In this document: positions 1-18,186 of the stretch, piece after piece
Layout of the letters: each line of letters opens with the position of its first letter
Numbering within the stretch: the stretch's first letter is position 1
Assembly: GCF_021209385.1 (NCBI RefSeq)
Contig: NZ_JAJOIL010000032.1
Span: 6,340 to 38,339, forward strand
Direction of reading: 5' to 3'
From: Seleniivibrio sp.
GTDB taxonomy: Bacteria > Chrysiogenota > Deferribacteres > Deferribacterales > Geovibrionaceae
Length of the DNA: 32,000 nucleotides
The notes under the pieces: model-generated
Databases searched by the model: none
What the model was told of the DNA's origin: nothing
The model's input: the letters and a program-made list of their open reading frames with translations, nothing else
Position numbers and translations under genes: made by a program

Positions 1-109
1 AGGGGTACAGGGCGGTAACAGGCTCGGCGGAAACGCAATCACCGATACAGTGGTATTCGGAAGAATTGCAGGAGCCAACGCAGCTTCTTACGCGGCATCA
101 GTTAAATAA
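1..109 (+). CDS. 3' end of a FAD-dependent fumarate-reductase / flavocytochrome-c-type flavoprotein (5' end outside window)
   Basis: Frame 2 reads [35 protein letters not shown] followed by TAA at 107-109. GGNRLGGNA...FGRIAG is the conserved C-terminal FAD-contact segment of the FAD_binding_2 fumarate reductase family. Confidence 0.6.
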
Positions 110-265: not shown

Positions 266-1420
266 ATGAAAAACAGCGTAAGCTTTAAAGGGTTGTTTTA
301 TATCAACTTTGCAGTAACCTGCGGTTTCGGGGCTTTGGACATATTCATGACGCTGTATGTTATAGAGCTTGGAGCGAAAGGTTTTCTGGTCGGTGCACCT
401 GCAATGCTTTACGCTCTGACGAAAATTATATGCGGGTTATCCCCTTCTGAAAGACTTCTTGCAATGGGGAGCAAAAAGCTGCTCATTTTTTCTCTTTTAT
501 TATTCTTTATTGCTGCTTCCGGCTATTTTATTACGGAAAATTTATACGCTCTGATCCTTTTCAGAATTCTTCACGGCTTCGGAACCGCAGTCTTCAGACC
601 GGTTCTCACGGCAAGTCTCTCTTCATGCACGGCAAAGGATGAACGCGGCAGGAAACTGGGTCTTTTCGATACGTCTTTTTATGCGGCTCTGGGCATCGGT
701 CCCGCAATAGGCGGTACTGTCAAGAGCATTTACGGATTCAAAGGATTATTTGCGCTCGTCATGATTCTCTCTTTTTCGGCATTGATAACCGCTCTCTTCA
801 TCAGGATAGGAAACATAGGCAAACCTGAAATATCAGGTAAATCCGCCGTTTTTACCAGCAGAGTGATTGGAATGAATATCTTTATTTTCGGAAGGGGTTT
901 CGGCATAGCATCTTTTTTCAGTTTTCTCCCTCTGCTGGCATGCAGTAAATTTGCAAACGGAGAACATACTGCCGGAATCGCGGCGGGTCTGGTGACACTG
1001 GTTTCATCGGCATTCATTACATTCGCAGGCAGACTTGCAGACAGAATGGATATCAGAAAACTTATAATTTCCGGAGGCACCGGATTGGCAGCTGTATATT
1101 GCCTCCTGCCCGGTTCGTCAGGAATAATAAGTTTTACGGCTTTGTGCTGTGCGGCGGGATTTTTCAGTATTGTAACTCAGCCGGCATGTTCTGCGGCATT
1201 AATGGAAAAGAACACACAGGAAAATACTTACAGACAGGCATCGGTTTTTAATTCATTCATGAACATGGGTTATGCGCTCGGGGCGCTTTCATCCGGTTTA
1301 ATCTATTCGGCTTCCGGTACGGAACAGGTATATTACACAGCGGCACTTGTCGGCATAACATGCTCTGCGGCATCATGGGCTGTAATGTACAGTGCTGAAA
1401 AGTCTGAAAGTCTTTCATAA
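266..1420 (+). CDS. MFS transporter (384 aa), paralogue of 13731-14918
   Basis: ATG start. Polytopic hydrophobic protein with about 12 predicted TM segments. Clear similarity to the second MFS ORF (ILHGFGTAVFRPVL...GRKLGLFDTSFYAALGIGPAIGG versus VVQGISCALFRPIM...GKILGTFDISFYSALALAPLVGG). Confidence 0.8.
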   Translation: MKNSVSFKGLFYINFAVTCGFGALDIFMTLYVIELGAKGFLVGAPAMLYALTKIICGLSPSERLLAMGSKKLLIFSLLLFFIAASGYFITENLYALILFRILHGFGTAVFRPVLTASLSSCTAKDERGRKLGLFDTSFYAALGIGPAIGGTVKSIYGFKGLFALVMILSFSALITALFIRIGNIGKPEISGKSAVFTSRVIGMNIFIFGRGFGIASFFSFLPLLACSKFANGEHTAGIAAGLVTLVSSAFITFAGRLADRMDIRKLIISGGTGLAAVYCLLPGSSGIISFTALCCAAGFFSIVTQPACSAALMEKNTQENTYRQASVFNSFMNMGYALGALSSGLIYSASGTEQVYYTAALVGITCSAASWAVMYSAEKSESLS

Positions 1421-2101
1421 CTTTTTAACATATCTTCTTTCGGGTCTGCCGATGGTTCCGTATTCAAGTTTTATATCAAGTATATTCAGGCTGTACAGAT
1501 ATTCCAGATACTTTCTGGCGGTTGTTCTGCTCAATCCGGCGGCAGAACCGACTTCGGAGGCGCTTAAACCCTGTTCCTGGCAGTTTTCAAAAACCTGCGC
1601 AACTTCATCAAGCGTAATGGCTTCTATCCCCTTGGGCAGATCCAGCCTTTGCTGACGGAGTTCACGGACGACCCCGAAAACAGCATCAGCACTCTCCTGC
1701 GTAAGTGTCTTTTTCCCTGAAAGAATACTGTATCTCTGTTTATACTTTTCAAGTGCGGCAGTAAACCTCTCGAAGAACACCGGCTTGATTATATAATCAA
1801 AGGCGCCACCTTTCAGTGCTTTGTTTATGTTCTCAGAATCGTTTGCCGCTGTAATAAGTATAACGTCAACATCCGCATGTTCGGAACGAAGAGTGTAAAG
1901 CAGATCCATTCCGTTCTTGTCGGGAAAATACAGATCCAGCAGGATAAGCTTCGGCTTTATCTCCCTGACCATAAAAAGAGCATCATCTATATTTCCGGCG
2001 ATTCCGATAAGGGAGAATCCCTCGACCTTCTGAAGGTACATTGCATGTATCTTCGCAACTCTGGTGTCATCCTCAACGATAAGCACATCAATGGTGTCCA
2101 T
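1415..2101 (-). CDS. Response regulator, CitB/DcuR family (receiver + C-terminal HTH)
   Basis: MDTIDVLIVEDD...LILLDLYFPD receiver motifs and a C-terminal GLSASEVGSAAGLSRTTARKYLEYL HTH. The ATG at 2101 follows GGGGG and lies 1 nt after the kinase stop. An alternative ATG at 2113 overlaps the kinase 3' end. Confidence 0.85.
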   Translation of the reverse strand: MDTIDVLIVEDDTRVAKIHAMYLQKVEGFSLIGIAGNIDDALFMVREIKPKLILLDLYFPDKNGMDLLYTLRSEHADVDVILITAANDSENINKALKGGAFDYIIKPVFFERFTAALEKYKQRYSILSGKKTLTQESADAVFGVVRELRQQRLDLPKGIEAITLDEVAQVFENCQEQGLSASEVGSAAGLSRTTARKYLEYLYSLNILDIKLEYGTIGRPERRYVKKL

Positions 2102-2102
2102 T

Positions 2103-3659
2103 TCAACCCCCATGATTTTTCGGAATTATTACGGTAATAAGCGCTCCGCCCATATCTCCGTCTTCTATAGTAACCGAGCCTTTAAGGTATGTTACCGCAT
2201 TTTTCATAAGATACATTCCAAGTCCTCTGCCTTTCTGACTTTTAGACGAATAGCCCCTTTCAAATACTTTCTCCCTCAGGTGGACAGGAATTCCCGATCC
2301 GGAATCTTCCACCTCAAATATCAGATCCTTACCGTAATCCGACATCGAGAGTGTAACAACATGTTGAGTTTTATTCTCGAGAGAAGCATCAAAAGCATTA
2401 TCTATAATATTGCCGACAATTGTCAGAAGATGAGTTCTGCTGATACTCTTCGGCACATCGAGCATACTGCTCTCTTCATCAATACGGAATTTTATCTTCT
2501 TTTCTGAAGCTGTCATATATTTTCCGAGTAAAAGAGACATCAACGCATGATCAGAAACGATTGTTTTCAGATTATGCGCAAGATATTTCTGCTCTTCGCT
2601 CAGCTCCATAATATATTCCAGCAACCCGCCGTATTCTCCCATCTGAACCATGCCCACTATCGCATGCATACGGTTATTGAACTCATGGGTCTGAGCACGC
2701 AGCATCTGCGCATATTCCTGAACCTGAGTAAGCTCTTTTGCAATCTGCTCGATCTCATCCTTTTTTCTTATCGTTGCAACAAAACCGATTATCTCTTTGC
2801 TCATAAAAAGGGGCATTATGTTCATAAGCAGTTCTGTCCCGTTGTAAACAACTTCCATATCTTTCAGTTCGCCGTTGCTGCCGGTTAATTTCAGTTCCGG
2901 AACTATTTCCTGAAATTTCATCCCTTTGATATCACCGAATATCTCTGTTGATTTACCATTCATGAGTTTAACTCTGCCTTTTATGTCCGTGGAGACAACA
3001 GCCTCTCTGATAGATTCCACAATTGCTGAAAGCTCCTGAAACATAACGGCAATTTCATAAGGTTCAAGCCAGAATATTGATTTTTTGATTTTTTTGGCGA
3101 TGATCACAGCGGAAATCAAAGCAAATGTTATGAAAATAAAGATAAAAAATACCATGTTGCTGAAATATTTGCTGATGACTGTCTCCACCCAGAAAAGAGG
3201 ATAGCTTACTGCGGCTGCGCCTTCTCCTTTGTTGATGGGACCGACAGCTGTTATCGCCGGCATATTATTTATTCTGTCATGAAGAATATAAAATGACTTT
3301 GATTTCGCAGCCTTGTCCAGCGCCAGTGAAACCTGAGCTTCTCTCGGTGCTTTTTCGGGAAAATATCTGACTTTTCCGTTAACCAGAATGACCACTCTTT
3401 CAGCGTTTATCTCCTGCCTGAAAGTTTCCGGTTTATACTCCAGATCAGCATTATCCTGAAATATGAAATGCGATATGCCATAAACCGCCTGAACGGCTCT
3501 GCTTTCCGTCTGTTTCACGGCAACATCGAAAAGCATACGGGAAACAACCCCGCCGAATGTCACAACAATAATGATGATCAGGCTGAGAACCACCAGCACA
3601 ACGGTATCAAGCAAAGTACCCTTTTTAAATATCTTTAAAACGTTTCCCGGCAAATTCAT
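2103..3659 (-). CDS. Sensor histidine kinase, DcuS/CitA family
   Basis: Two TM segments flank a periplasmic domain of about 130 aa. A cytoplasmic PAS domain follows, then the SpoOB-like phosphoacceptor box HEFNNRMHAIVGMVQMGEY and the HATPase motifs NIIDNAFDA, EDSGSGIP and GRGLGM. Confidence 0.85.
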   Translation of the reverse strand: MNLPGNVLKIFKKGTLLDTVVLVVLSLIIIIVVTFGGVVSRMLFDVAVKQTESRAVQAVYGISHFIFQDNADLEYKPETFRQEINAERVVILVNGKVRYFPEKAPREAQVSLALDKAAKSKSFYILHDRINNMPAITAVGPINKGEGAAAVSYPLFWVETVISKYFSNMVFFIFIFITFALISAVIIAKKIKKSIFWLEPYEIAVMFQELSAIVESIREAVVSTDIKGRVKLMNGKSTEIFGDIKGMKFQEIVPELKLTGSNGELKDMEVVYNGTELLMNIMPLFMSKEIIGFVATIRKKDEIEQIAKELTQVQEYAQMLRAQTHEFNNRMHAIVGMVQMGEYGGLLEYIMELSEEQKYLAHNLKTIVSDHALMSLLLGKYMTASEKKIKFRIDEESSMLDVPKSISRTHLLTIVGNIIDNAFDASLENKTQHVVTLSMSDYGKDLIFEVEDSGSGIPVHLREKVFERGYSSKSQKGRGLGMYLMKNAVTYLKGSVTIEDGDMGGALITVIIPKNHGG

Positions 3660-3744: not shown

Positions 3745-4179
3745 ATGATTCACAGGTTATCGTACATATTCCTATACACGATTGCACTGGCTAACGCAGC
3801 ATCCGCAGTTTTTCAATATTATCATGAAAAAATGCTCTCGTTTGCTGTTATTCTGCAACTGATCACAGCCGTCGTAACAATCATATCAATCTCTTTTGTA
3901 AAAAGCAGGGAGAATACGGAACGTATTGAATCATATCTTTCACTTAAATTAACGGTTTTCATAATCGTTTATGCAATATCCATACCACTCTGCGGGTATC
4001 TTTTAAGCACGACTATTTTTGTTTACCTCATAAGCCGCGACTATTCAGTCAACTGGACAGACTGCATGCTGACGGCACTTATATCATCGCTTATCATTTA
4101 CAGTTTCTTCTTATACGGGCTGCATTTTACCCCGCCTCTCGGCAGACTGTTCACCTTTATGGGGGGCGCGTTATGGTAA
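3745..4179 (+). CDS. Small 4-TM membrane protein, TctB-like (tripartite tricarboxylate transporter small subunit)
   Basis: 144 aa with about 4 hydrophobic helices. The C-terminal pattern ...IYSFFLYGLHFTPPLGRLF resembles the TctB end motif. It neighbours a TctC gene and its stop overlaps the next ORF's start. Confidence 0.45.
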   Translation: MIHRLSYIFLYTIALANAASAVFQYYHEKMLSFAVILQLITAVVTIISISFVKSRENTERIESYLSLKLTVFIIVYAISIPLCGYLLSTTIFVYLISRDYSVNWTDCMLTALISSLIIYSFFLYGLHFTPPLGRLFTFMGGALW

Positions 4180-5315
4180 GCACTAAGCTGTGTATATTCC
4201 TCTTTACGCTTCTCGGAACCCTTTCGATGGTATTTCCGGCTATGCTCCGGCTGAGAAGGAGCGAGGCACTCGGAATATCTGTTCTTTTTATAGGAGCCTT
4301 CGCGCTGCCCAGAGAGAACGTTATCGCATATACAGTTGCGGCAGTCTCCTCGACTTTCTTTTATTATTCACTCACAGGGAAAGAGAAACTGGGCAGAGAA
4401 CGGCTTATTAAACTTGCTGTGTGTTTTTCGGCAGGCATGGCGCTGACTTTTGCCGGTTCGTTTTTCTCCGGTCTTGCGATATATATGCGTTCGGGCGGAA
4501 TGCTTGCGGCAATCCTGCTGTCCGTTATAATCTATATAACCATGAACCGCGGACGCAGAGCGGAAACAGCCGCCGGTATATTTTCCGGAATGAGTATCTT
4601 TTTTGTGACGGCTGGCATAGAGGGACTTGCCAGCACCTCTTTCACAGGTGAAAGAGGACTTATGATCGCACTGGTATCACTTCTCATACTCCCGAAGATT
4701 TATGTAGGTCGTCTTTGGGACGAACAGGAACTTAAACCTTCCGCCGGGATTTTCATAGCACTGCCCATCCTTTTTTTCTCATCGGTGCCGGTAAATTTTT
4801 CAACATCCGCAGTGCTTGCGGCATTCAACAACAGCAGCATTGTGACCGGAGGTTACATCAGCATAGCGGAAGAACCTTTCCAGAGCGCGTTTACATGGTC
4901 AATGTTTTTTTCCATATTACTGATAGTTTCAGTTTTATACTCCGCAAAGTATCTGAAAAGATACAAAATCTCGGTACCAGTCACAGCTGTCAGATTCGGC
5001 AGACCATTCATGGTGGCACTCAGTCTGGCAATGCTTATCATGCACGGAGCAGCATGGCAGGAGATTTCCGCTGCGGCAATTATGAGCTTCTTTGGATTTG
5101 TTCTTTATAAATCATTCATAACACCGGAAGCGGTGTTCATGGGATACAGCATATGTGCAGTTATAAGGGAAGAGAGCATCAAAACCGGAATGGCTGCCGC
5201 AGAAACAGGCTACATTCATTATTTTATGAACCTGCCCTTTCAGGGAATAGCCGCAATAACCATTATAGCAATAGCAGCCTATATCACTAACGGATGGGGA
5301 AGAGACCGTAAATAA
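4173..5315 (+). CDS. Polytopic integral membrane protein of unknown family (380 aa)
   Basis: ATG preceded by GGGGGG. It overlaps the TctB-like gene by 7 nt, suggesting translational coupling. About 10 hydrophobic segments. I could find none of the G-x3-G-x3-PG-type TctA motifs. Confidence 0.6.
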   Translation: MVSTKLCIFLFTLLGTLSMVFPAMLRLRRSEALGISVLFIGAFALPRENVIAYTVAAVSSTFFYYSLTGKEKLGRERLIKLAVCFSAGMALTFAGSFFSGLAIYMRSGGMLAAILLSVIIYITMNRGRRAETAAGIFSGMSIFFVTAGIEGLASTSFTGERGLMIALVSLLILPKIYVGRLWDEQELKPSAGIFIALPILFFSSVPVNFSTSAVLAAFNNSSIVTGGYISIAEEPFQSAFTWSMFFSILLIVSVLYSAKYLKRYKISVPVTAVRFGRPFMVALSLAMLIMHGAAWQEISAAAIMSFFGFVLYKSFITPEAVFMGYSICAVIREESIKTGMAAAETGYIHYFMNLPFQGIAAITIIAIAAYITNGWGRDRK

Positions 5316-6281
5316 TCATTTACGGAATTTCTTACCTTTTACAACAGATTTGTAAACCTCGTACTGACCGTTAATAAAACGTTCCGCATAAATCGTATCG
5401 GTTATCCCGTCATCATTGCCGCTCAGCATCATTTGGTACTCTTCTGACTGCATAACTTTTCTGACGGATTCATTGATATATCTGCGTATGTATTTAGGTG
5501 TTTCCCGCCTGACCATAAACGCCCGCCAGCTGGTTATCGGAGTGTTCAGTCCGAGTTCGCCGGAACAGGGAACATCTTTCAGCATCCTGAGCCTTTCGTC
5601 GCCAAGCACCAGAACCGGTTTTACCAGCTCTTTATTTATCATGGGCAATGCGGAAATAACTTTATCTATGTATACTGAAGTTTCGCCGGAAACTATCCCC
5701 GCTTTCGCTTCTGCACCGGATTTATAAGGAACAAGTCTGAAATCCACACCTGTGCTTTCAGCCAGAAGCGAAACCGCAATGCTGTCAAGACCGCCCTTGC
5801 TTATTCCCGATACCAGCACAACCTTGCCCTTTTTTGCCTTCATCATATCCTCAAATGACCTATATTGGCTGTCTTTTGAAAAAGATACGATGTAATTGTC
5901 TGACTGTATTTTTGCTATCGGAACGAAATCCTGCATCAGTTTTTTCTTTCCGCCGTTTTCCAGAATATCGTGTATTATGATTGAAGGAGTTATTTCAAGA
6001 ATGGTATAGCCGTCGGCGGGACTTCTCTGAGCTTTCTGCATTGCATATTGTCCGCCCTGACCAGATATGTTGGCAAAGGTTATTCCGTAATGAAAATCTT
6101 TTTGCATCAGCCGGCTGAAATCGCGCACAAATATATCGCTGGCTCCTCCCTCTCCGAAAGGAATGATTATCTCCACAGGTCTTTCAGGATAGTCCCCCTC
6201 GTTGACCAGTCTCGATTCAATATCGTTCTGGGATTTACAACCGCAAACAGCAAGCAGCAGCAATATCAAAATATATCTCAT
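5316..6281 (-). CDS. tctC: Tripartite tricarboxylate transporter substrate-binding protein (TctC/Bug family), probable lipoprotein
   Basis: YPERPVEIIIPFGEGGASDIFVRDFSRLM...GQGG...PADGYTIL is the family signature. The N-terminus MRYILILLLLAVCGC looks like a lipoprotein signal. Confidence 0.85.
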   Translation of the reverse strand: MRYILILLLLAVCGCKSQNDIESRLVNEGDYPERPVEIIIPFGEGGASDIFVRDFSRLMQKDFHYGITFANISGQGGQYAMQKAQRSPADGYTILEITPSIIIHDILENGGKKKLMQDFVPIAKIQSDNYIVSFSKDSQYRSFEDMMKAKKGKVVLVSGISKGGLDSIAVSLLAESTGVDFRLVPYKSGAEAKAGIVSGETSVYIDKVISALPMINKELVKPVLVLGDERLRMLKDVPCSGELGLNTPITSWRAFMVRRETPKYIRRYINESVRKVMQSEEYQMMLSGNDDGITDTIYAERFINGQYEVYKSVVKGKKFRK

Positions 6282-6373: not shown

Positions 6374-7624
6374 CTATTTAGGTGTTGAAGATGCTCCGAA
6401 TTCAAAAGAATATGTTGCGTATACTCTTTTGTCTGTGTAATCGACGCTTTTATGTGTGCCGTCGGTGTTGATATCCGCATAACGGAATCTTAAAGCAAGT
6501 CCTTTAAGAGCCTTAAAGGGGAGCTTATATGTCAGGTCATAATCAAGTTCTTTTGCATCATACCCGGCATTGTCGCCTGAATCCGGTGTGTCATAATCCG
6601 CGTAGAATATTGCAAATTTAAGCCCTTTTGCGCCGAGTTTTGAAAAATCATATCCAAGTTTAACGCCATATGCAGTCTCTTCGGCTCTTTGTGAGCTGAG
6701 AACCTGCTGAACTAAGATCTTTGAATGTCCCCACGGTGTGGAAAGCGCATCATCTCCGGTCTTAGCATAATACAGAGAAAGAGAGGCATCGCCGTATTTG
6801 GCTGTACCGACAGCTCCGTATTGGTGAGTATCCAGATCGCCGCCGTCTTTATCGCCGATTGCTTTCTGAATGAGATATGAAGGTTTAAGGCTGAGGGAAA
6901 CTTTACTGAATTTTGAAGAGAGTTCAACTGCACTGTAAGTAAAGCCGAAACCGTCCTCAATTGTATAATACCACGCCTGAGGAACAACTTTAACGCCTTC
7001 AGCCGCATTCCATGTGTACATTAATCCTGCGGCATAGAGGGGATTATCATCCATATTATTGTTAAATGAAGATGCTATGTCGGTAAATTCAGTATCAGTG
7101 CGATCCAGAGTATCTGTTAAATAGTACAGTGAAGCCTCAAGGTTCGGAACTGTATTATTCACAACCGACAGACCTTTATAGGTTTTCGGAAGCATTCTGG
7201 TATCAAATCCGTTAACAAAAGGAGTATCAACCTCCTGTGCGCCGTACTTGATTTTTGTATCAGCCCACTCACCCTGAATGAAATATTCACCGAGCTTAGT
7301 TAAGCTCTTGTGAGACTCAGAGGAGGAGTTCTGCAACAGATCATATCCGCCCTTGTCGTCGTCACTGTTGATGTTGTTTGATGTATAAAACCCTACACCA
7401 AGTGAAATTCCGTAAAGAGGAGCGGTCTTATAATGGAATATGCCGCCGATCGCCTGTTCGCCAAGATCCTGTTTTGAGCCGTCATAATCCCTTTCAAAGA
7501 ACATGGTTCGGATCTCTGCCGATCCGCTGCCCTGAGAAAACATTTCGCCGATATTAGTTGCCGCATTTGCTGAAACAGTTATTAAGCAGGTCAGCAGTGC
7601 GCTGAAAAAAAACCTGGTTTTCAT
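6374..7624 (-). CDS. OprD (Occ) family outer-membrane porin, 416 aa
   Basis: Signal peptide MKTRFFFSALLTCLITVSANA. OprD-like motifs: AEIRTMFFERDYDG, GISLGVGFYTS, KIKYGAQEVDTPFVNGFDTRMLPKTYKGLSV. GGAGG RBS. Paralogue at 16913-18142. Confidence 0.75.
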   Translation of the reverse strand: MKTRFFFSALLTCLITVSANAATNIGEMFSQGSGSAEIRTMFFERDYDGSKQDLGEQAIGGIFHYKTAPLYGISLGVGFYTSNNINSDDDKGGYDLLQNSSSESHKSLTKLGEYFIQGEWADTKIKYGAQEVDTPFVNGFDTRMLPKTYKGLSVVNNTVPNLEASLYYLTDTLDRTDTEFTDIASSFNNNMDDNPLYAAGLMYTWNAAEGVKVVPQAWYYTIEDGFGFTYSAVELSSKFSKVSLSLKPSYLIQKAIGDKDGGDLDTHQYGAVGTAKYGDASLSLYYAKTGDDALSTPWGHSKILVQQVLSSQRAEETAYGVKLGYDFSKLGAKGLKFAIFYADYDTPDSGDNAGYDAKELDYDLTYKLPFKALKGLALRFRYADINTDGTHKSVDYTDKRVYATYSFEFGASSTPK

Positions 7625-7813
7625 AATACCTCCTTAAAGTATAACAAAATTCAAGTATTCATAAAACCTGCCTAATCATATAACTGATTGATATTATGTC
7701 AACTTTGTGGTGTTATTGAGCTTTATGGCTATATAATCATTTATGGTGTTTTTGGCGGCAGAAATGTGAAAGCTGTGTATTGGATGGAGGAAAGCTTATC
7801 GTCCTAAATGAAT

Positions 7814-7843
7814 TCAGGCATCAGCAGAAATGCCGATGCCTGA
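7814..7843 (-). terminator. Hairpin downstream of the cytochrome c gene (weak terminator candidate)
   Basis: TCAGGCATC (7814-7822) pairs with GATGCCTGA (7835-7843) around a 12-nt loop. The trailing sequence on the minus strand is only partly T-rich. Confidence 0.35.
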
Positions 7844-7875
7844 TGACTATAAAAAACACTACAGGGAAACGCTTG

Positions 7876-8538
7876 TTATTTAACTATTTTCTGTTTCCAG
7901 ACAAATCCCCACTGATGGCATTTTACGCAGTAGTCCTTAAAATCACCGTGCATGCTGTGGCATTTCGTACAGGTGAGGTTCGGGAAATGCGATTTATGGG
8001 GATTAGCCTTATAAGGAGCTTTGGCTGTTTTTGCCATCATCTCGTTAAAATCTCCGTGACATCCCACGCATTTTTTATGCATTTCGTCAGCTTCGTCTTC
8101 GTCGTATGTTTTGTGGCAGTCGGCACACATCAGTCCGGCATTTTTATGTGAATTTGCTAATTTTCCTGTGGTATAGAGTGAATTAAACTTTTCCGCTCCG
8201 TCTTCAGAGTCAATTTTTGCACCGCTGGCGGAATTTACCGTGATATTTCCTTCTGAATCTGCCACATGGCATGACAGGCAGGTATCTTTAACTATCTCCA
8301 TCTGAGCGAAATGGACATTATGTATTTTGCCGCCCAGTTTCGGACCTTTTCCGCCGTCCGCGTGGCAATCGAAACAGCCTTCAAATGCTGTTTTCTTCAC
8401 ATGTTCTTTCGGAAGTATCTTGCTGACACTCTCGTGGCAGTCCTTGCATCTGAATCCTATTTCCGCGGCATATCCCCATGAACAGACGAAAAGAACAACA
8501 GCGGCAATAAGGGTTAATCTATATTTATACAGAGACAT
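7876..8538 (-). CDS. Heptahaem c-type cytochrome (periplasmic or membrane-anchored)
   Basis: Seven CXXCH motifs: CKDCH, CFDCH, CLSCH, CADCH, CVGCH, CTKCH, CVKCH. N-terminal hydrophobic segment LTLIAAVVLFVCSWGYAAE. The ATG at 8538 sits 6 nt after AAGGTG; the ORF-track start at 8547 is a GTG. Confidence 0.9.
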   Translation of the reverse strand: MSLYKYRLTLIAAVVLFVCSWGYAAEIGFRCKDCHESVSKILPKEHVKKTAFEGCFDCHADGGKGPKLGGKIHNVHFAQMEIVKDTCLSCHVADSEGNITVNSASGAKIDSEDGAEKFNSLYTTGKLANSHKNAGLMCADCHKTYDEDEADEMHKKCVGCHGDFNEMMAKTAKAPYKANPHKSHFPNLTCTKCHSMHGDFKDYCVKCHQWGFVWKQKIVK

Positions 8539-8564
8539 TGTTTTCACCTTAATTAAAATATGTT

Positions 8565-8593
8565 AAAAAGCGGGCGCTCCGAAGAACGCCCGC
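8565..8593 (-). terminator. Rho-independent terminator after the OM barrel gene
   Basis: On the minus strand: GCGGGCGTTC, loop TTCG, GAGCGCCCGC, then TTTTTAA. It lies 20 nt after the stop at 8613. Confidence 0.7.
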
Positions 8594-8612
8594 AAGTCTA
8601 TAGGAGGCTGTT

Positions 8613-9509
8613 TCAGAATGAGAATACCGCTCTTACCCAGTATTTATCGCCTTCGGATCTGTTTTCAACCAAAGTCTCTTTCTGATATTTGACGTGAATA
8701 CCTATGTTTTTGTAATTGTACTGAATTGTAGGACCTACACCAAGAACCCTGCCTTTGTAATCATCAACGGTTTCGCCGTCGGATTTATCGTCAGTTATCT
8801 GCTGATAGTAGTATCCGCCAAGACCTACAGTCCAGCTGCCGAAGTGCTGTCCTGTAAAATAGTCGACGTGAAATTCCTGACCGGACTTATAGTCCGTGTC
8901 ATTGTTCTCAGTATTAAAGTCATACATGAACTTTCCGGACACTTCATATCCGCCGTCGGTAACATAGCTTATTCCGTATGCAGGCTCAAAGGTGTAATAG
9001 TTGCGGCCTATATTGGCTATGTCGTTTTTGTCGTATGCACCTGTGGGAACGTCAATATCAAGGGCTATCGCCTGATGAAGATTTTTTGAGTGCCATGAAA
9101 GATTCACGCCGACATCAATATCGCCGAGACCTGAAGCGTTATCCTTTCCGGCGGGAGTTTCCAGGTGCATATTCACAAGAGGGATCAGGGTCTGAAAACC
9201 GAGATTTCCTCCGGCGATCTGAGTTTTGGTAACATAAACAAATCTGGAAACGTCAGCCAGAACGTTTGCCTTAAAGTGGACGTCAATCTTGTCGCCGTTA
9301 TTGTCTTTAAGGGCATCCGCTGTGTAATAGTTCAGATAGTTAAGATAATAAAAGCCCGCGGGAGGAATGGCACCTGCCATAACATCCTCCGCTCCGTTTG
9401 GATATGCTCCGCCGCCGCCCTCTGTAGCAAAAGCGGAAGAACAGGGAACAGCAAACGCAGCTGTTATTACAGACATGATAATGAATTTTTTAAGTCTGCT
9501 GATTATCAT
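8613..9509 (-). CDS. Outer-membrane beta-barrel channel, MetA-pathway/phenol-degradation-like family
   Basis: Signal peptide ...AAFAVPCSSAFA. GGGGAYPNGAEDVMAGAIPPAGFYYLNYLNYY is typical of this family. Alternating beta-strand pattern and terminal ...VRAVFSF. The ATG at 9509 follows AAGGG; a GTG at 9518 is 2 nt from the flavoprotein stop. Confidence 0.7.
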   Translation of the reverse strand: MIISRLKKFIIMSVITAAFAVPCSSAFATEGGGGAYPNGAEDVMAGAIPPAGFYYLNYLNYYTADALKDNNGDKIDVHFKANVLADVSRFVYVTKTQIAGGNLGFQTLIPLVNMHLETPAGKDNASGLGDIDVGVNLSWHSKNLHQAIALDIDVPTGAYDKNDIANIGRNYYTFEPAYGISYVTDGGYEVSGKFMYDFNTENNDTDYKSGQEFHVDYFTGQHFGSWTVGLGGYYYQQITDDKSDGETVDDYKGRVLGVGPTIQYNYKNIGIHVKYQKETLVENRSEGDKYWVRAVFSF

Positions 9510-9520
9510 AACATTCACCC

Positions 9521-11041
9521 TTATTTGCCTGTTTTAATGTATTTGACAGCGTCAGCACCTGCAAGGCGTCCTGATGTTGCGGCAAAGCCGAATGCAGAAC
9601 CTGAAGCCCAGAGGGTGTATGTGTCACCGTAAAGTCCGCCGACATCACAGCCGACCACATAAAGTCCGTTAATGGCTTGGTCGTTGCTGTCGATAGCCTG
9701 CATCCTTTCGTTGATTCTGGCTCCGCCAAGAGAAACGAAATAGTAGGGCAGGACTTTAACCGCATAGAAGTTTCCGGTCTTAACGTGAGTCATTCCCCTT
9801 GTGTCTCTGTCAAACTCAGGATCAAGGTTATTGTCAATGTAAGAGTTATAGTTTTTAACGGTTGTTGTAAGAGTGGCGGGGTCAACACCTATCTGTTTTG
9901 CAAGGTCGGCTATGCTTGAGGACATAGCGACGTCTTTATTCCCTTTAGCTATTTCGCCTTTGATCTCGTCAACAAGTCCAGGGATCTTTGTTCCGAGAGG
10001 AATAAGAACGCCAAGACCGTTATCAAGACCTTTTTCGCTGAGATGTTTGACTGTTTCGTCATCGAATATAGACCAGACAAAGTGTCCGTTCTGACGCTCA
10101 ACAGCATTTCCTGCAAGCGCGAAGCTGTAAACAACGTCCTCGTCAACGATTCTCTTTCCGAATTTGTTAACCCAGAGGCTGGGCTGCCATGTCATAGCGA
10201 ACATGGGTCCGAGAGGTCTGTGGGTTCCGGGGTGCAGCATAAGACCCCATCCTTCAGTATCTGCTCCGGCAGACATAGCCATGTCTATACCGTCGCCTGT
10301 TTTTTCAAGAGGCGCTGTGGCAAAAACTGTTTTTCCGTCAAAACGTGTGTATTTTGAAACCATATCGGGGTTATTGGGAAAACCGCCTGTTGCAAGGATA
10401 ACGGCTTTTGCGTTGACAATAACTTTATTGCCTTTTGCATCCTCGCCTTCAACACCGCTGATTTTGCCGTTTTTCATGATGAGCTTTTTGCCGGGTGTCT
10501 GATAAAGAACCTTTATACCAAGCTCGTCTGCTTTTTGTACCATTGAATAGATCAGAGAAGCTCCGTGGTGTATGCCGTTTTTATCTTTCACAAGGTGCCA
10601 TGTGAAACCTTCGGTGGGAGATATTTTAACCGGATCAAACTCCACGCCCTGTTTTTTGAGCCAGTTGATGGTATTTTTTGATTCGTTGATATAGAGGTGT
10701 ACCAGTCTGGCATCAGCTCTGAAGTGGTTGAACTCCATTGAATGTTTGAAAGCTTCCTGAGGCGTAAGTCTTTCTGATTTAAGTCTGAGCTCGTCTGTTT
10801 CCACAGCGAAAAGCCCTTCCGCAAGATTCGAGCTTCCGCCCGCCATGTCCTGTTTCTCAAGAACAATTACCTTTGCTCCGTTTTCAGCGGCGGATACGGC
10901 TGCTGAAAGCCCTGATGAGCCGGCACCGACGACGACAACATCGGCGTCATAGACTTTGTCTTTCGCATATGCAGAAAAAACAAACATAAAAGACATGAAT
11001 GTAAATACGAAAGAAAGAAACTTTTTAGAAACCCTTTGCAT
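9521..11041 (-). CDS. Periplasmic (Sec-signal) FAD-dependent oxidoreductase, fumarate-reductase/flavocytochrome flavin-subunit superfamily
   Basis: Strong GGAGG RBS. Signal peptide MQRVSKKFLSFVFTFMSFMFVFSAYA with no twin arginine. Dinucleotide fold DVVVVGAGSSGLSAAVSAAENGAKVIVLEK...GGSS. The C-terminus GGLYGDTYTLWASGSAFGFAATSGRLAG differs from the canonical GGNRLGGNA motif. Confidence 0.85.
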   Translation of the reverse strand: MQRVSKKFLSFVFTFMSFMFVFSAYAKDKVYDADVVVVGAGSSGLSAAVSAAENGAKVIVLEKQDMAGGSSNLAEGLFAVETDELRLKSERLTPQEAFKHSMEFNHFRADARLVHLYINESKNTINWLKKQGVEFDPVKISPTEGFTWHLVKDKNGIHHGASLIYSMVQKADELGIKVLYQTPGKKLIMKNGKISGVEGEDAKGNKVIVNAKAVILATGGFPNNPDMVSKYTRFDGKTVFATAPLEKTGDGIDMAMSAGADTEGWGLMLHPGTHRPLGPMFAMTWQPSLWVNKFGKRIVDEDVVYSFALAGNAVERQNGHFVWSIFDDETVKHLSEKGLDNGLGVLIPLGTKIPGLVDEIKGEIAKGNKDVAMSSSIADLAKQIGVDPATLTTTVKNYNSYIDNNLDPEFDRDTRGMTHVKTGNFYAVKVLPYYFVSLGGARINERMQAIDSNDQAINGLYVVGCDVGGLYGDTYTLWASGSAFGFAATSGRLAGADAVKYIKTGK

Positions 11042-11122
11042 CTTAATCCTCCTTATTTTTAAGGACAGCGTCCTCTATAAGAAAGATTATATTGTTACGG
11101 GCAATTGAACCATTGGGCTGAT

Positions 11123-11151
11123 TACCGTTTCTTATACCTGTAAATACTTAG
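11123..11151. promoter_or_regulatory. Three TAC-heptamers (TACCGTT, TACCTGT, TACTTAG) upstream of the flavoprotein gene; candidate NarL-family regulator sites
   Basis: Heptamers start at 11123, 11135 and 11145 (spacing 12 and 10 nt), 82-110 nt upstream of the ATG at 11041. The same words recur at 13550-13588. Confidence 0.25.
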
Positions 11152-11214
11152 CCGAACCGAGTCTTTCCCCTAGGCTCCACCGTAAAAAACTCCATACGGC
11201 TACGGTAAATCTAC

Positions 11215-11883
11215 CTAAGATATCATATCCTGAAAATGCGACCACTTGATAGCATACTGGGAGAGTTCGGCTGCGTTTTTGAGCCCCAGCTTGTGTTTCA
11301 TGCTCTCCCTGAAAGCGTCTATAGTCTTAACGCTGAGATTCAGATTCTCCGCAATCTGCTTGGATGTAAAACCGTTGCCTATCATCTGAAAAACCTGAAA
11401 TTCCCTGTCGGACAAAGTCTCGACGACGTCCTTATCGGGAGATTCCTTTGCACTCATCGCCTTGTTAAGAACATATTCTGTCATTCTGGCACTGAGATAT
11501 ATCTTCCCTTTCAATATCCTTCTGATTGCTTCAATGATAACTATGGGTTTTTCGCTCTTCATCACATATCCGGAAGCTCCGGCTCTGATGCACCGTTCGG
11601 CGAAAATAAGCTCTTCATGCATTGAAAGCACAAGAACAAATACGGAAGGGTACCTGGCTTTTATGCTTTTTATGATATCCAATCCGTTTGAGGCACCGAG
11701 AGAAAGATCAACTATGGCAACATCAGGCTCTATTTTAAACAGAAGATTTACGGCAGAAAGAGCATCCTCGGCGGCTCCGCATACCTCCATATCCGATTCG
11801 TGATTTATAAGTCTTACAAGCCCTTCTCTGACGATGGCGTGGTCATCCACAATAAAAACTTTGCATGCGTTCTGAATACTCAT
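11215..11883 (-). CDS. Response regulator, NarL/FixJ family (receiver + LuxR-type HTH)
   Basis: KVFIVDDHAIVREGL...VAIVDLSLG receiver motifs. C-terminal LSDREFQVFQMIGNGFTSKQIAENLNLSVKTIDAFR is a GerE/LuxR HTH. Confidence 0.9.
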   Translation of the reverse strand: MSIQNACKVFIVDDHAIVREGLVRLINHESDMEVCGAAEDALSAVNLLFKIEPDVAIVDLSLGASNGLDIIKSIKARYPSVFVLVLSMHEELIFAERCIRAGASGYVMKSEKPIVIIEAIRRILKGKIYLSARMTEYVLNKAMSAKESPDKDVVETLSDREFQVFQMIGNGFTSKQIAENLNLSVKTIDAFRESMKHKLGLKNAAELSQYAIKWSHFQDMIS

Positions 11884-13730: not shown

Positions 13731-14918
13731 ATGACGGAGAGCAGACTCAGTTTAAAATTCACGTCTCTTTTCGCAATCAATTTTCTTATCACTTTTTGCT
13801 TTGGCATTAACGATTCACTGTTCTCCCTGTACTACAGCTCATACAGCGTGAACGGACTTCTGTTCGGACTTTCCTTCACGCTGTATTCCATGTCAAAAAT
13901 AGCGGTCAGTCCTTTCACAGGCGCATTTCTCGACAGATATAAACCAAACAGGGTGCTTTTTGTGACTTTGGCGATGTATTTTGCCGTATCCGCATCTTTT
14001 TATCTGATACACAACGAAGTAGCCATAATAGCCGTAAGAGTCGTTCAGGGGATATCCTGTGCCCTGTTCCGTCCGATAATGTATTATATTCTCGGCAGAA
14101 ACGCCGAAAGCGGCAGCGGAAAGATTCTGGGTACATTCGATATCTCTTTCTATTCCGCTCTGGCTCTGGCTCCTCTTGTCGGCGGTTTCGTTGTGAAGTG
14201 GGGCGGATTCGGCACCGTCTTTATCGTTATGATGCTCTGCTGTATGGCAGCCATAGCTGTCGCCCTGACTTTTTCCGGTCTTTACAGGATACGAAAAGGG
14301 TGTGAAACACATGAAGAATCTTCCGAACTCTCAACAGGAATCCTTAACCGCCTTATGGTCTATATTTTTTTCAGAGGTCTGGGGATATCCGTCATAACCG
14401 CTTTCCTGCCTATATATTTATCCGGAATAAACATTGATATCAGTGCCATAGGGATTTTACTCTGTGTCATAACAGCATGTACCGCTCTGTTTCTACCTTT
14501 AACAAGTTCGCTTGCGGATAAGATGAACAAAGAGATTCTTATAGCCTCCGGCGGTATAGCCGTATCTCTGATATTAATGACCCTGACCAGTTTCACAGGA
14601 TTTATTCCGCTGATCGTTGCAGCCGGATTAAGCGGTTTTTTCAGCGCTCTGTCCCAGCCTGCCTGCTCGTCGCTGATGATAGAAAAGACAGAAAAGAAAA
14701 AACTCGGAAGCACCATAGGCAAGTTTAATTCATCCATGGGACTCGGATTTGCCTTCGGTCCGTTTGCAGGGATGCTTATAAACAGGACTTTAGGCATAAA
14801 TGCAGTATTCATAATCGCAGGATTTCTGGGGATAGTGACATCCGGTATATTCCTTTTCCCTGCCGAAACAAAAACGGTATCACTGTCTGAAGAGATCGGA
14901 AATTCCACTCTAAATTAA
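13731..14918 (+). CDS. MFS transporter (395 aa), paralogue of 266-1420
   Basis: ATG preceded by GGGAG. About 12 TM segments. Shares motifs with the first MFS ORF throughout its length. Confidence 0.8.
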   Translation: MTESRLSLKFTSLFAINFLITFCFGINDSLFSLYYSSYSVNGLLFGLSFTLYSMSKIAVSPFTGAFLDRYKPNRVLFVTLAMYFAVSASFYLIHNEVAIIAVRVVQGISCALFRPIMYYILGRNAESGSGKILGTFDISFYSALALAPLVGGFVVKWGGFGTVFIVMMLCCMAAIAVALTFSGLYRIRKGCETHEESSELSTGILNRLMVYIFFRGLGISVITAFLPIYLSGINIDISAIGILLCVITACTALFLPLTSSLADKMNKEILIASGGIAVSLILMTLTSFTGFIPLIVAAGLSGFFSALSQPACSSLMIEKTEKKKLGSTIGKFNSSMGLGFAFGPFAGMLINRTLGINAVFIIAGFLGIVTSGIFLFPAETKTVSLSEEIGNSTLN

Positions 14919-15078
14919 TCATCACTCCTCTTTTTTGCTTATTTATACGAAACCGCCGGCATCAAAAGCTTAAAAATAATTCACACCAATAACTTTTATT
15001 TATAAAAATTCAATATAATCCTCACCAAAATTTAAAACCGCTGTGCAACTACTTAATAAGCAAATTTGGAGGGTATCA

Positions 15079-16866
15079 ATGAAATACTTAACTAGAATAC
15101 TGGTTATGTTATTGATCGCTTCCGGCATATATGCCTGTGGAAGCGACGGTTCCGACGGAACAAACGGAACCGATGGAACCGACGGCACAAACGGTGCGGG
15201 ACAGGTTATTGGTCTGACACAGAAAGGACGTTACTCATCAGGTGTTTTTGACGCCAGCGCCGCAGAGATCGTCGCATATGACAAGGTAAACAACAGAACC
15301 TATGTTGTGAATGCAAATTCAGGACATGTTGATGTTCTGAACAGTTCCGATCTTTCAAACGTTACATTGGTAACAAGCATTTCCGTTGCCGACGACCTTG
15401 TAGCGGCGGGAACTGTTGCAAACACCTCTCTTGTCGGTGCAGCAAACAGTGTCGCTGTTAACGGAAATATCATGGCTGTGGCTGTTGAAGCCGACCCCAA
15501 GACTGACAACGGCTGGGTTATGTTTTACAGCACCGCTGACAACACACTGCTGAGAGCGGTTCAGGTCGGCGCTCTTCCCGACATGCTCACCTTCACTCCC
15601 GACGGAAGTAAGGTTGTTGTTGCCAACGAAGGCGAACCCGACGAAGGATATGCAAACGATCCGGAAGGCAGCGTAAGCGTTATCAAAGTTTCAGACTACA
15701 GCGTTGTGAACGTCGGCTTCACCGATTTCAACTCCGGCGGAACACGCTATTCCGAACTGCCTCTGAGCAAAATGGTAATCGACGGCTTTAACGCAACAGT
15801 CGCAGAAAGCCTTGAACCTGAATATATCGCTGTAGACGCGGATGGTGCGAAAGCATACGTTTCCCTTCAGGAAAACAACGCAATAGCCGTCATAAACCTT
15901 TCAACCAACACAGTTGAGAAGATATTCGGTCTCGGATTCAAAGACCATTCAATCCCCGGCAACGAGCTGGACGCAAGCCAGAAGGACGGCGTAAACATTA
16001 AAAACTGGCCTGTAATGGGCGTTTACATGCCCGACACCATCAGCACCTTCACTTCTAACGGCAAAACCTATCTGGTTACAGCCAACGAAGGGGATTCCCG
16101 TGCAGATTGGCTGAAAGATATAACCGATCAGACGGCATGTGAAGCCTCCGGTTATTTCTTCTCTACAGACGACACCGAATGTGTGGATGAATTCTCCGCA
16201 AAAGACTATTACGACAGCGACAACGTAACGCTTGTAAATGCGGACGGTGACCCCTATATCACAGACAACACAGGAACTGCCATCCACGGAGGATTCGGAG
16301 GAGACAGCGACCTTTACCGTCTGAAATTCTCCTATTCTCTGACTGTAAAGAAGAACGGAGGCACCGATTTTGAAAAACTCTATGCCTACGGCGCACGTTC
16401 ATTCTCCATCTGGGATGCGGAAACAGGTCTGCTGGTTTACGATTCAGGCAGCGACTTTGAACGCATCACTGCAAACATATACGGAGCAGACTTTAACAAC
16501 GACAACGCAGCAAATGCAGGCGACGACAGAAGCGACAACAAAGGACCCGAGCCTGAGGCACTCGCAATAGGCGTGATCAACGGTCATACATACGCTTTCA
16601 TAGGTCTTGAGCGCATGGGCGGCATTATGGTTTACGATGTATCCAACCCTTATGCACCGGCGTACGTTCAATACATCAACAACCGCAACGTTTCCGTTAA
16701 CTTTGACGCATCGAACTTTGAAGAGGCGGGCGATCTCGGTCCCGAAGGATTCGCATTCGTATCATCTGCAAACAGTGCAGATGGAATACCTATGCTGATA
16801 GTGGGTAACGAGGTCAGCGGAACGACTACATTCTATTCGATATTATCGAAAGCACTCTCACAATAA
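15079..16866 (+). CDS. Secreted lipoprotein, beta-propeller 'choice-of-anchor I' / atypical alkaline-phosphatase-like family (function uncertain)
   Basis: GGAGGG RBS 5 nt before the ATG at 15079. Signal MKYLTRILVMLLIASGIYAC with Cys20. A Gly-x-x linker follows. Motifs PDMLTFTPDG, VANEGEPD, EPEYIAVD, VTANEGDSR, GPEPEA and GPEGFAF are as I recall them for this family. Confidence 0.65.
   Translation: MKYLTRILVMLLIASGIYACGSDGSDGTNGTDGTDGTNGAGQVIGLTQKGRYSSGVFDASAAEIVAYDKVNNRTYVVNANSGHVDVLNSSDLSNVTLVTSISVADDLVAAGTVANTSLVGAANSVAVNGNIMAVAVEADPKTDNGWVMFYSTADNTLLRAVQVGALPDMLTFTPDGSKVVVANEGEPDEGYANDPEGSVSVIKVSDYSVVNVGFTDFNSGGTRYSELPLSKMVIDGFNATVAESLEPEYIAVDADGAKAYVSLQENNAIAVINLSTNTVEKIFGLGFKDHSIPGNELDASQKDGVNIKNWPVMGVYMPDTISTFTSNGKTYLVTANEGDSRADWLKDITDQTACEASGYFFSTDDTECVDEFSAKDYYDSDNVTLVNADGDPYITDNTGTAIHGGFGGDSDLYRLKFSYSLTVKKNGGTDFEKLYAYGARSFSIWDAETGLLVYDSGSDFERITANIYGADFNNDNAANAGDDRSDNKGPEPEALAIGVINGHTYAFIGLERMGGIMVYDVSNPYAPAYVQYINNRNVSVNFDASNFEEAGDLGPEGFAFVSSANSADGIPMLIVGNEVSGTTTFYSILSKALSQ
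15139..15198 (+). repeat. Imperfect 9-nt tandem repeats encoding GSDGSDGTNGTDGTDGTNGA
   Basis: The unit (a/t)cNga(c/t)gg(n) is repeated about six times directly after the lipobox Cys codon (15136-15138). Confidence 0.6.
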
Positions 16867-18142: not shown

Positions 18143-18166
18143 CGTTCCTCCTTGTAGTAAAAACCC

Positions 18167-18183
18167 TTCCGCTAAAAGCGGAA
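18167..18183 (-). other. Short intercistronic hairpin between the NapH-like and porin genes
   Basis: On the minus strand: TTCCGCT, loop TTT, AGCGGAA, then GGGTTTTTAC. A 7-bp stem with a 3-nt loop; a weak attenuator at best. Confidence 0.3.
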
Positions 18184-18186
18184 AAT

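Follow-up and report, generated by a model that had tools for sequence, protein, structure and literature searches.

We analyzed a 32,000-nt stretch of DNA from Seleniivibrio sp. (the window; RefSeq assembly GCF_021209385.1, contig NZ_JAJOIL010000032.1, positions 6,340 to 38,339 of the forward strand), in which a minus-strand run of genes encodes, in order, an FAD flavoprotein, a MetA-type (COG4313) outer-membrane barrel, a cytochrome with seven CXXCH motifs and an OprD-type porin (Table 1). A first-pass annotation had picked out these four genes, and all of them are present where it had placed them, with the hairpins it had described. The Pfam models it had proposed as a check, PF00890, PF13557 and PF03573, all matched, with E values that, together with seven haem motifs in 223 residues, are far beyond chance. 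Our evidence comes from the genes present, their domain families and residue replacements, the synteny and the transcription signals; signal peptides were called from sequence and hydropathy only. As argued below, we give a somewhat better than even chance to the reading that the flavoprotein, the barrel and the cytochrome form a cytochrome c-dependent periplasmic reductase of a hydrophobic, likely phenolic, alkene.

Table 1. Features of the module and of the genes around it (positions in the window)
Feature	Position	Strand	Remarks
Putative catalytic subunit: Sec-signal FAD flavoprotein, assigned to a VprA-like clade of the FAD_binding_2 superfamily	9521-11041	-	506 aa; PF00890 E 9.5e-56
COG4313 / Phenol_MetA_deg outer-membrane beta-barrel	8613-9518 (GTG) or from ATG 9509	-	PF13557 E 1e-70
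Intercistronic GC-rich stem-loop in the barrel/cytochrome gap	8570-8593	-	10-bp stem, 8 GC pairs, T5 run
Sec-signal heptahaem cytochrome c	7876-8547, probable ATG 8538	-	7 CXXCH; PF14537, PF14522
Hairpin at the end of the conserved module	7814-7843	-	13-bp stem, poor T tail
OprD/Occ-family porin	6374-7624	-	PF03573 E 4.4e-33
Hairpin and T run after OprD	6349-6320	-	13-bp stem
Control region of the flavoprotein operon	11042-11214	-	TATAAT, conserved blocks
NarL/LuxR-type response regulator (receiver and GerE helix-turn-helix)	11215-11883	-	PF00072, PF00196
Cytoplasmic sensor histidine kinase: two PAS, HisKA_3 and HATPase domains, no transmembrane segment	11894-13402	-	Pfam
MFS_1 (DHA1-like) inner-membrane transporter, divergent from the kinase gene	13731-14918	+	PF07690 E 1.9e-41
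TctC, lipoprotein-like N terminus	5316-6281
TctA-like membrane protein	4173-5315		380 aa, short, no Pfam match
TctB	3745-4179
DcuS/DcuR- or DpiB/DpiA-like two-component system	1415-3659
MFS_1 transporter	266-1420	+
C-terminal fragment of a classical Fcc-type flavocytochrome c	2-109	+	GGNRLGGNA motif, ends VK

The conserved module and the separate porin gene

We defined the conserved unit from a phmmer survey of 89 loci and from look-ups of exact proteins, of which the one for Geobacter sp. FeAm09 P0020 gave no match; the Deferribacterota contexts were taken from the look-ups, none of them being among the genome-collection matches listed. The unit comprises a gene for a major facilitator superfamily (MFS) transporter, genes for a PAS-HisKA_3 kinase and a LuxR-type regulator, and the series flavoprotein, COG4313 barrel and ~220-aa heptahaem cytochrome. 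It is found in the closest relative, whose flavoprotein is 96% identical to that of the window (locus L087/L088), in Seleniivibrio woodruffii (Deferribacterota, Geovibrionaceae; L080), which has the closest named flavoprotein at 78% identity, and in Geovibrio sp. (L082), a Denitrovibrio acetiphilus-like contig (L084) and a Geobacteraceae metagenome-assembled genome (MAG; L002). A variant module, in which a small 4-haem cytochrome gene (110-130 aa) precedes the flavoprotein and barrel genes, occurs in Ferrimonas futtsuensis, Shewanella mangrovi, bacterium UBA2219, Shewanella sediminis and Trichlorobacter lovleyi, while Brenneria, the sole lineage with the flavoprotein-barrel pair and no multihaem cytochrome, keeps the pair itself. 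The barrel gene adjoins the flavoprotein gene in about 11 of the 13 loci at a flavoprotein identity of at least 47% and in none below about 45%; the pair is therefore a co-inherited orthologous unit.

Two of these loci have peculiarities of their own. The genome with the 96%-identical module (GCA_050253035.1, contig JBFWJU010000002.1) is deposited as "Sphaerochaeta sp.", which is probably a binning or labelling error, since for each gene of the block the remaining close relatives all come from Deferribacterota. In L084 the flavoprotein gene of the main module is split into open reading frames (ORFs) of 84 and 410 aa, suggesting a frameshift or an assembly error, and the same contig (1-5007 and 6485-8020) holds a second, paralogous triad, divergent from a regulator gene with XylR_N and V4R domains, that encodes a flavoprotein with a twin-arginine (Tat) signal (568 aa), a 165-aa 4-haem cytochrome and a COG4313 barrel.

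Two outer-membrane channels had been proposed as dedicated to this system, and only one of them proved to belong to it. The MetA-type barrel gene, which begins 2-11 nt after the flavoprotein stop codon, adjoins the orthologous flavoprotein genes as described above. The OprD gene, by contrast, has its own terminator and its own promoter (TTGACA-16-TATGAT at 7702-7675, 11 of 12 positions of the sigma-70 consensus and the best match in the 8.6-kb region). Nucleotide homology between the window and the 96% relative spans the cytochrome gene and the hairpin behind it and stops at about 7735, roughly 30 nt upstream of where the OprD promoter lies, and no OprD gene follows the cytochrome gene in any of the five relatives. 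Its place is taken by an unrelated 337-aa protein in Seleniivibrio, a transposase in Geovibrio, a chemoreceptor in the Denitrovibrio-like contig, ribBA in the Geobacteraceae MAG and a LytTR response regulator in the 96% relative. Because of this promoter, this terminator, the synteny breakpoint and the absence from relatives, the OprD gene is a separate monocistronic unit outside the conserved module. The idea that the four genes are coregulated is thus not supported, and a single four-gene operon was rejected.

The barrel itself is a typical member of its family: PF13557 covers 241 of 242 profile positions, and its length of 301 aa with a signal-like N terminus fits the family's class of 270-320 aa for the mature protein. 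Its match to Pput2725 (PDB 4RL8) is marginal (E 0.0033). COG4313 channels have been linked to the import of trichlorophenol, sphingosine and further compounds of hydrophobic or amphipathic character, and not of hydrophilic solutes (PMC4493636), so that by the family literature the barrel may be the module's own entry route for a substrate that is hydrophobic or amphipathic. It resembles TcpY (trichlorophenol), SphA (sphingosine) and Pput2725 (PMC4493636) in domain, size class, signal peptide and the position of its gene inside the operon it would serve; these three supply cytoplasmic pathways of catabolism or protection, whereas the window barrel would serve a periplasmic reductase.

The flavoprotein and its heptahaem partner

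The flavoprotein was placed by NCBIfam model scores and PDB alignments. Its best curated family is VprA (NF053717), with 357 bits and an E value of 1.6e-106 over positions 6-480 of 481, a score below the model's cutoff of 600; the flavocytochrome c model TIGR01813 gives 201.8 bits (cutoff 285.45), TcuA 192 and KstD 161. Its relatives score 290-480 bits on the VprA model, which ranks top for the orthologues and also across a large outer clade; members of that clade include forms located in the cytoplasm (Dehalococcoidia, Actinomycetota and Acidobacteriota), Gram-positive lipoproteins and Sutterella enzymes, the last being 41-44% identical to the window protein among the matches listed. The top sequence matches in the PDB are Fcc3 (E about 1e-47) and UrdA (2e-32). 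When aligned with Fcc3, the flavoprotein keeps only one of the four residues H365, R402, H504 and R545, namely H365 (as H270); the proton donor R402 is replaced by Y305, a position variable among relatives, H504 by V436 and R545 by Y475, and the E378/R381 proton path is not present. Conversely, Y475, Y461, H149, E75, K247, R297 and E301 are invariant in 34 relatives. The C-terminal motif is GGLYGDTYTLWASGSAFGFAATSGRLAG, with GGLYGDTYTLW where the Fcc-type fragment at the start of the window has its GGNRLGGNA.

This comparison confirmed the earlier remark that the protein lacks GGNRLGGNA, and the Fcc3 residues together with the NCBIfam scores bore out its position outside the classical fumarate reductases. 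A role as fumarate, acrylate or methacrylate reductase was rejected, as the residues required for it are absent from the Fcc3 alignment. On account of the model scores and residue replacements, we assign the flavoprotein to a VprA-like clade, as neither an Fcc/Mrd/Ard-type enzyme nor a VprA orthologue. A fold search with its AlphaFold2 model (pLDDT 90.6) gave TM-scores of 0.77/0.85 for UrdA and 0.77 for KstD; it retrieved no solved relative closer than Fcc3, UrdA and KstD and did not narrow the substrate.

The N terminus of the flavoprotein (MQRVSKKFLSFVFTFMSFMFVFSAYA/KDK) has a single hydrophobic segment (residues 8-26) and is signal-like, with an AYA/K site. By inspection, no twin-arginine motif is found in this protein or in its 13 closest orthologues. 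Export by Sec implies that FAD is loaded in the periplasm. We presume that this would resemble the maturation of the fused FccA of Shewanella, for which FAD is exported by Bfe.

The cytochrome (220-223 aa) has its CXXCH motifs at residues 34, 58, 90, 141, 160, 193 and 207, and its probable start codon is preceded by the ribosome-binding site AAGGTGA. All seven motifs are invariant in ten orthologues, in which exactly seven further histidines are invariant too (H46, H73, H76, H131, H181, H184 and H197 in the 220-aa numbering). Because the numbers agree, we read the additional histidines as distal ligands of what are probably seven bis-His, low-potential haems. Residues 141-215 align to the tetrahaem domain of Fcc3 (residues 16-93; E 6e-9), and this C-terminal part is homologous to the small 4-haem partners in the gamma-proteobacterial modules; the N-terminal trihaem part matches cytochrome c7-type models.

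A word-indexed search with the cytochrome returned 7 matches and a profile search 54, none of the latter being named Mcc, Anaeromyxobacter or G. sulfurreducens. The second tier of the profile search consists of heptahaem cytochromes of 208-249 aa that are collinear with the query at 25-31% identity (E 1e-24 to 1e-30). One of them (P0158) is encoded 62 nt after a Tat-type, TIGR01813-positive flavoprotein (L089). Another (P0168, 208 aa) agrees, in length and in its signal of 18 residues, with what the literature gives for Dacet_2522, which is the D. acetiphilus homologue of Mcc (PMC4427408). Since the alignment is collinear with cytochromes of these kinds, one next to a Mrd-like flavoprotein and one of Dacet_2522-like length and signal, we assign the protein, on architecture and neighbours, to the Mcc family, here paired with a flavoprotein of another clade. 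The tetrahaem alignment and this collinearity support the earlier proposal of a two-component periplasmic reductase of Fcc or Mrd-Mcc design. A function as NrfH/CymA-type membrane quinol dehydrogenase was rejected: the match to such proteins is faint and local, the signal looks cleavable and Mcc is soluble.

Systems with a periplasmic flavoprotein and a separate multihaem cytochrome are already known, including Fcc, Mrd/Mcc, ArdAB, SO_3056/58 and SO_3300/01. The closest in layout is Mrd/Mcc of Geobacter sulfurreducens AM-1, in which a separate flavoprotein of ~50 kDa with an FAD_binding_2 domain and a Sec-exported cytochrome of 220-230 aa with seven CXXCH motifs are likewise encoded in one cluster with a terminator-like hairpin between the genes; homologues of this pair occur in Deferribacteres and delta-proteobacteria (PMC4427408). 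Unlike the window flavoprotein, Mrd is Tat-exported (RRDFLK) and belongs to the flavocytochrome c family, as does the Mrd-like flavoprotein of L089, which is encoded directly before an Mcc-like cytochrome (Tat signal SRRSMLKG; 409 bits on TIGR01813 and 151 on VprA). In addition, the window has a COG4313 gene between the flavoprotein and cytochrome genes, and its cytochrome is only 25-31% identical to the Mcc-like ones.

With Fcc3/FccA, Wolinella succinogenes FccAB and Shewanella woodyi ArdAB (bioRxiv 10.1101/2024.02.11.579808) the system would share the fold, the tetrahaem donor domain and the periplasmic site, and the upstream 4-haem partner of the gamma-proteobacterial orthologues recalls ArdB and FccB. 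It differs from them in that R402, H504, R545 and E378/R381 are not conserved, in the Tat signals borne by the flavin subunits of the split enzymes (Mrd, FccA and ArdA), and in having a dedicated outer-membrane channel, which the Fcc3, FccAB and ArdAB systems do not have. VprA of Lactiplantibacillus plantarum, to which the flavoprotein aligns end to end, reduces a vinyl C=C bond conjugated to a phenol (PMC10295242); it has no cytochrome partner or outer-membrane channel and is under LysR-type control, whereas the window protein has both of these and a signal peptide. The gut reductases CirA-D, CrdA-D and IrdA, compared here by description only, are also secreted FAD_binding_2 enzymes, often encoded beside two-component systems and with Arg replaced by Tyr in several clades, and they act on cinnamates and other plant- or host-derived alkenes (bioRxiv 10.1101/2022.12.26.521950). 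The characterized ones are from Gram-positive bacteria, and neither a COG4313 channel nor a heptahaem partner has been described for them. In the literature we searched, we did not find described this flavoprotein clade as part of such a two-component system, the Sec-type signal, the obligate COG4313 pairing or the linkage to phenol sensors.

Transcription signals, regulators and neighboring genes

The 173-nt control region upstream of the flavoprotein gene has a perfect TATAAT (11091-11086) and no good -35 element. Two blocks are conserved across five genomes, TACCGTA (11207-11201) and CGGTAATCAGCC (11127-11116), and the five aligned upstream regions share invariant TAC..T and GGTA..CC..AT columns. 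The conserved blocks are candidate regulator binding sites, and their combination with a TATAAT lacking a -35 element would suit activation by the LuxR-type regulator. Kinase orthologues adjoin the module in L080, L082, L084, L087 and L002-L005, and the regulator is conserved with them. As the window kinase has no hydrophobic 19-mer, its signal must reach the cytoplasm, which fits a membrane-permeant inducer.

All five loci of the heptahaem type have a stem-loop in the gap that separates the barrel gene from the cytochrome gene. The one in the window has the form of a canonical terminator, and Seleniivibrio, Geovibrio, the Denitrovibrio-like contig and the Geobacteraceae MAG each have a hairpin there as well; in three Deferribacterota it is followed by a T run and resembles an intrinsic terminator. 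A terminator has likewise been reported between mrd and mcc (PMC4427408). The space between the stem-loop and the cytochrome start is too short for a promoter, which leaves read-through, or a promoter within the barrel gene, as the source of the cytochrome. The stem-loop probably stops transcription only in part and so sets the ratio of the subunits. The hairpin that closes the module has a proper T run in the copy of the 96% relative.

In three orthologous modules with flavoproteins 48-51% identical to that of the window (S. sediminis, T. lovleyi and a Geopsychrobacteraceae MAG), a sigma-54 activator with XylR_N and V4R domains is encoded divergently next to the module. The closest matches of the S. 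sediminis and T. lovleyi activators are MobR (373 bits) and DmpR/CapR (6IY8, E 1.5e-98), and their sensor domains match those of PoxR and MopR; they keep the zinc site of MopR (C155/E178/C181/C189) as well as H106 and W134, the residues that anchor the phenolic OH in MopR (PMC9556785). An activator of this type also lies next to the module of L084, where it is shared with the second triad and where the module keeps the PAS/LuxR pair as well. The flavoproteins of the PAS/LuxR and DmpR-type versions are 48-57% identical, and their channels are orthologous.

The genes that follow two of these modules bear degradative signatures. Downstream of the T. lovleyi module (L086, 5233-8882) there are two genes of the HGD-D family and one for a BcrAD_BadFG ATPase, of the benzoyl-CoA reductase / 2-hydroxyacyl-CoA dehydratase type, and downstream of the Geopsychrobacteraceae module (L007, 9192-11765) genes for an IclR regulator, an SDR protein and a DmpF-like acylating acetaldehyde dehydrogenase. 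These could reflect a link to aromatic catabolism or be unrelated.

The MFS gene beside the kinase gene has an equivalent in L087, L080, L082, L084 and L002, and NCBIfam gives it weak efflux-type matches only. MFS genes of this subfamily also lie directly downstream of signal-bearing flavoprotein genes in a Smithellaceae, a Syntrophales and a delta-proteobacterial MAG (L003, L012 and L030), with no cytochrome or channel gene nearby. Such neighbors could be flavin exporters for Sec-exported flavoproteins, or carriers of substrate or product; for the one beside the module, flavin export, inducer uptake and product efflux are guesses at candidate roles. No FMN riboswitch was found upstream of either MFS gene in the window, and neither the Rfam scan nor the tRNA scan of the window gave a match. 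The second MFS gene begins 157 nt after the fragment of the Fcc, itself a Sec-exported protein, and its product is a paralogue with 31% identity to the module's transporter. In the Geobacteraceae MAG, the heptahaem cytochrome gene is followed by a gene for bifunctional RibBA (DHBP synthase / GTP cyclohydrolase II; L002, 6610-7812), and in G. sulfurreducens AM-1 a GTP cyclohydrolase gene lies 505 nt downstream of mcc (PMC4427408). The presence of ribBA in L002 may point to a flavin-supply link or be a coincidence.

On the other side of the module, the OprD gene probably belongs with the adjacent carboxylate island (TctC, the TctB/A-like proteins, the DcuSR-like system, MFS and Fcc). We take the OpdH-tctCBA locus of Pseudomonas aeruginosa to be a comparable arrangement, with an OprD-family porin beside TctC, TctB and TctA under a two-component system; it differs from the window block, in which the TctA-like protein is short and without a Pfam match, and Fcc and MFS genes stand at the far end. 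Among PDB entries the porin matches the vanillate porins OpdK/VanP and OpdH, and it is closer to OpdO/OpdK-type entries than to OpdH. OprD-type porin genes stand beside periplasmic reductase genes elsewhere in the lineage (flavoprotein-OprD-MFS in L090, OprD-flavoprotein in L082) and follow molybdenum oxidoreductase genes in L091, L092 and the window itself (16913-18313). It is thus plausible that OprD feeds some periplasmic reductase, on evidence without a tie to the window flavoprotein. With OprD as the query, a metagenome scan yielded nothing but relatives of the second porin of the window.

This second porin is part of a molybdopterin cluster that also holds Fer4 proteins and a NarJ-like chaperone (20385-21059). 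The catalytic subunit of its molybdopterin oxidoreductase (21733-24413, minus strand) is split into overlapping ORFs in different frames (23661-24413 and 21733-23901), which suggests a frameshift, a sequencing error or recoding. At 15043-16866, on the plus strand, a gene encodes a 607-aa choice-of-anchor I protein with a lipoprotein-like N terminus and a Gly/Asp/Thr-rich linker; it adjoins the MFS gene in the 96% relative too, and not in Seleniivibrio.

Substrate and direction of the reaction

Four clues, namely the VprA-like family, the COG4313 channel, the phenol-type regulators of orthologues and the soluble kinase, together point to a compound that is aromatic and probably phenolic, permeates membranes and has a reducible double bond, although they are not proof. 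From these and the gene content we infer the reaction direction, substrate class, electron path and physiological role as follows. The substrate, hydrophobic or amphipathic and unsaturated, most likely a vinylphenol or a lignin-derived phenylpropenoid, would enter through the COG4313 barrel, and its C=C bond would be reduced in the periplasm by the FAD of the Sec-exported, VprA-like flavoprotein. Electrons would pass from the quinol pool, via a quinol dehydrogenase encoded elsewhere, to the soluble heptahaem all-bis-His cytochrome and on to the flavoprotein, on which the C-terminal tetrahaem domain of the cytochrome may dock as the haem domain does in Fcc3. The cytoplasmic PAS kinase and the LuxR-type regulator would drive the activator-dependent promoter, and the stem-loop would tune the ratio of channel to cytochrome. 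The role could be that of an electron sink (anaerobic respiration), detoxification or both. The reductive direction is proposed because the haems appear to be bis-His and because all characterized cytochrome-linked relatives reduce.

Several points weigh against this reading. The inference of a phenol is borrowed from orthologues of about 50% identity, and the window module itself has a PAS/LuxR pair in place of a DmpR-type sensor; of the two anchor residues, the L084 regulator retains the His alone. The clade is without a characterized enzyme, and the VprA score of the flavoprotein is well below the VprA cutoff. The superfamily is prone to substrate switching and convergent specificities, so that substrate range is unreadable from sequence, and reductases of other clades that act on cinnamate, a carboxylate, also have Tyr in place of Arg (bioRxiv 10.1101/2022.12.26.521950). 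A haem-less FAD subunit exported by Sec would require putative loading of FAD in the periplasm, and no quinol dehydrogenase genes are found near the module.

The first-pass annotation had proposed an exogenous organic acid as substrate, and a module that respires an unsaturated or aromatic carboxylic acid, such as cinnamate, coumarate, caffeate or a similar enoate, with OprD admitting the anion and the MetA-type barrel the protonated or hydrophobic form, is the first alternative to be weighed. OprD/Occ porins are carboxylate channels, the PDB matches of this one include OpdK/VanP and OpdH, such porins are often encoded beside periplasmic reductases in the lineage (L090, L082, L091/L092 and 16913-18313), and gut cinnamate reductases without the Arg pair exist. 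Yet the porin that the idea depends on has a promoter and terminator of its own, is absent from all relatives and lies beyond a breakpoint that precedes its promoter, and TctC, the TctB/A-like proteins, the DcuS/DcuR-like system and the classical Fcc are its more natural partners. The carboxylate-binding Arg is absent from the flavoprotein, in which R545, H504 and R402 of Fcc3 are all replaced, its best family is VprA, and orthologues are accompanied by phenol-sensor-type regulators. We therefore do not favor an organic acid and consider it rather unlikely. A hydrophobic, non-aromatic substrate (an unsaturated lipid, a sphingoid base, a quinone or a terpenoid alkene) appears distinctly improbable. 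It would gain from the sphingosine channel SphA within COG4313, from the lack of a diagnostic ligand signature in the PAS/LuxR pair of the window and from the fast drift of substrate specificity in the superfamily, and would take the link to phenol regulators as divergent specificity; it has to face three independent phenolic hints (the nearest family is VprA, the channels are of the TcpY type, and the OH anchor is intact in the MopR/DmpR-type sensors) and the close relationship of the modules under the two types of control.

The main mechanistic rival concerns the direction of the reaction. The flavoprotein could act as a desaturase of an alkylphenol, a steroid or a cyclic ketone, like KstD or cyclohexanone dehydrogenase, and deliver electrons through the cytochrome to an anaerobic chain. 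The TM-scores of KstD and cyclohexanone dehydrogenase are as high as that of UrdA (0.72-0.77), DmpR-type regulators usually control catabolic pathways, and the Tyr at the R545 position resembles what we take to be the catalytic Tyr of KstD; alkylphenol-oxidizing periplasmic flavocytochromes exist in another fold family. Desaturation of a C-C bond needs a high-potential acceptor, however, and seven bis-His haems and a tetrahaem domain of Fcc type are a typical mark of low-potential donors, bis-His haems being generally of low potential. Moreover, the characterized cytochrome-linked periplasmic members (Fcc, Mrd and ArdAB) are all reductases, KstD models score far below VprA and the window has no downstream catabolic genes. 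An oxidative role thus seems very doubtful. We likewise think it unlikely that a broader version of the reductive reading holds in full, in which metal- and selenate-respiring bacteria of sediments (Deferribacterota, Geobacteraceae, Shewanella and Ferrimonas) would share a hitherto unrecognized respiration of phenolic alkenes from plants, such as vinylphenols. It would be carried out by a COG4313 channel, a heptahaem cytochrome and a VprA-like flavoprotein that passes through Sec unfolded, which is unusual for a flavin subunit without haem, and takes up FAD in the periplasm, with the MFS transporter as a novel type of FAD exporter.

Periplasmic flavocytochrome reductases let anaerobes respire organic compounds, and to our knowledge their known substrates are few: fumarate, urocanate and its derivatives, acrylate and methacrylate. 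The module described here adds a distinct flavoprotein clade, widespread in environmental respirers and with a channel of its own for hydrophobic molecules. Together with the phenol-sensing-type regulators next to orthologues, this channel provides a concrete, testable short list of substrates in cultivated organisms. Two features, the Sec-type signal of an FAD subunit that lacks haem and the MFS gene that recurs nearby, bear on how flavin is delivered to the periplasm outside Shewanella. If the substrate is vinylphenol or a similar lignin-derived alkene, the module would constitute an environmental respiratory route to ethylphenols, would link the turnover of plant phenolics to metal-reducing communities and would contain the first COG4313 channel that feeds a periplasmic enzyme.

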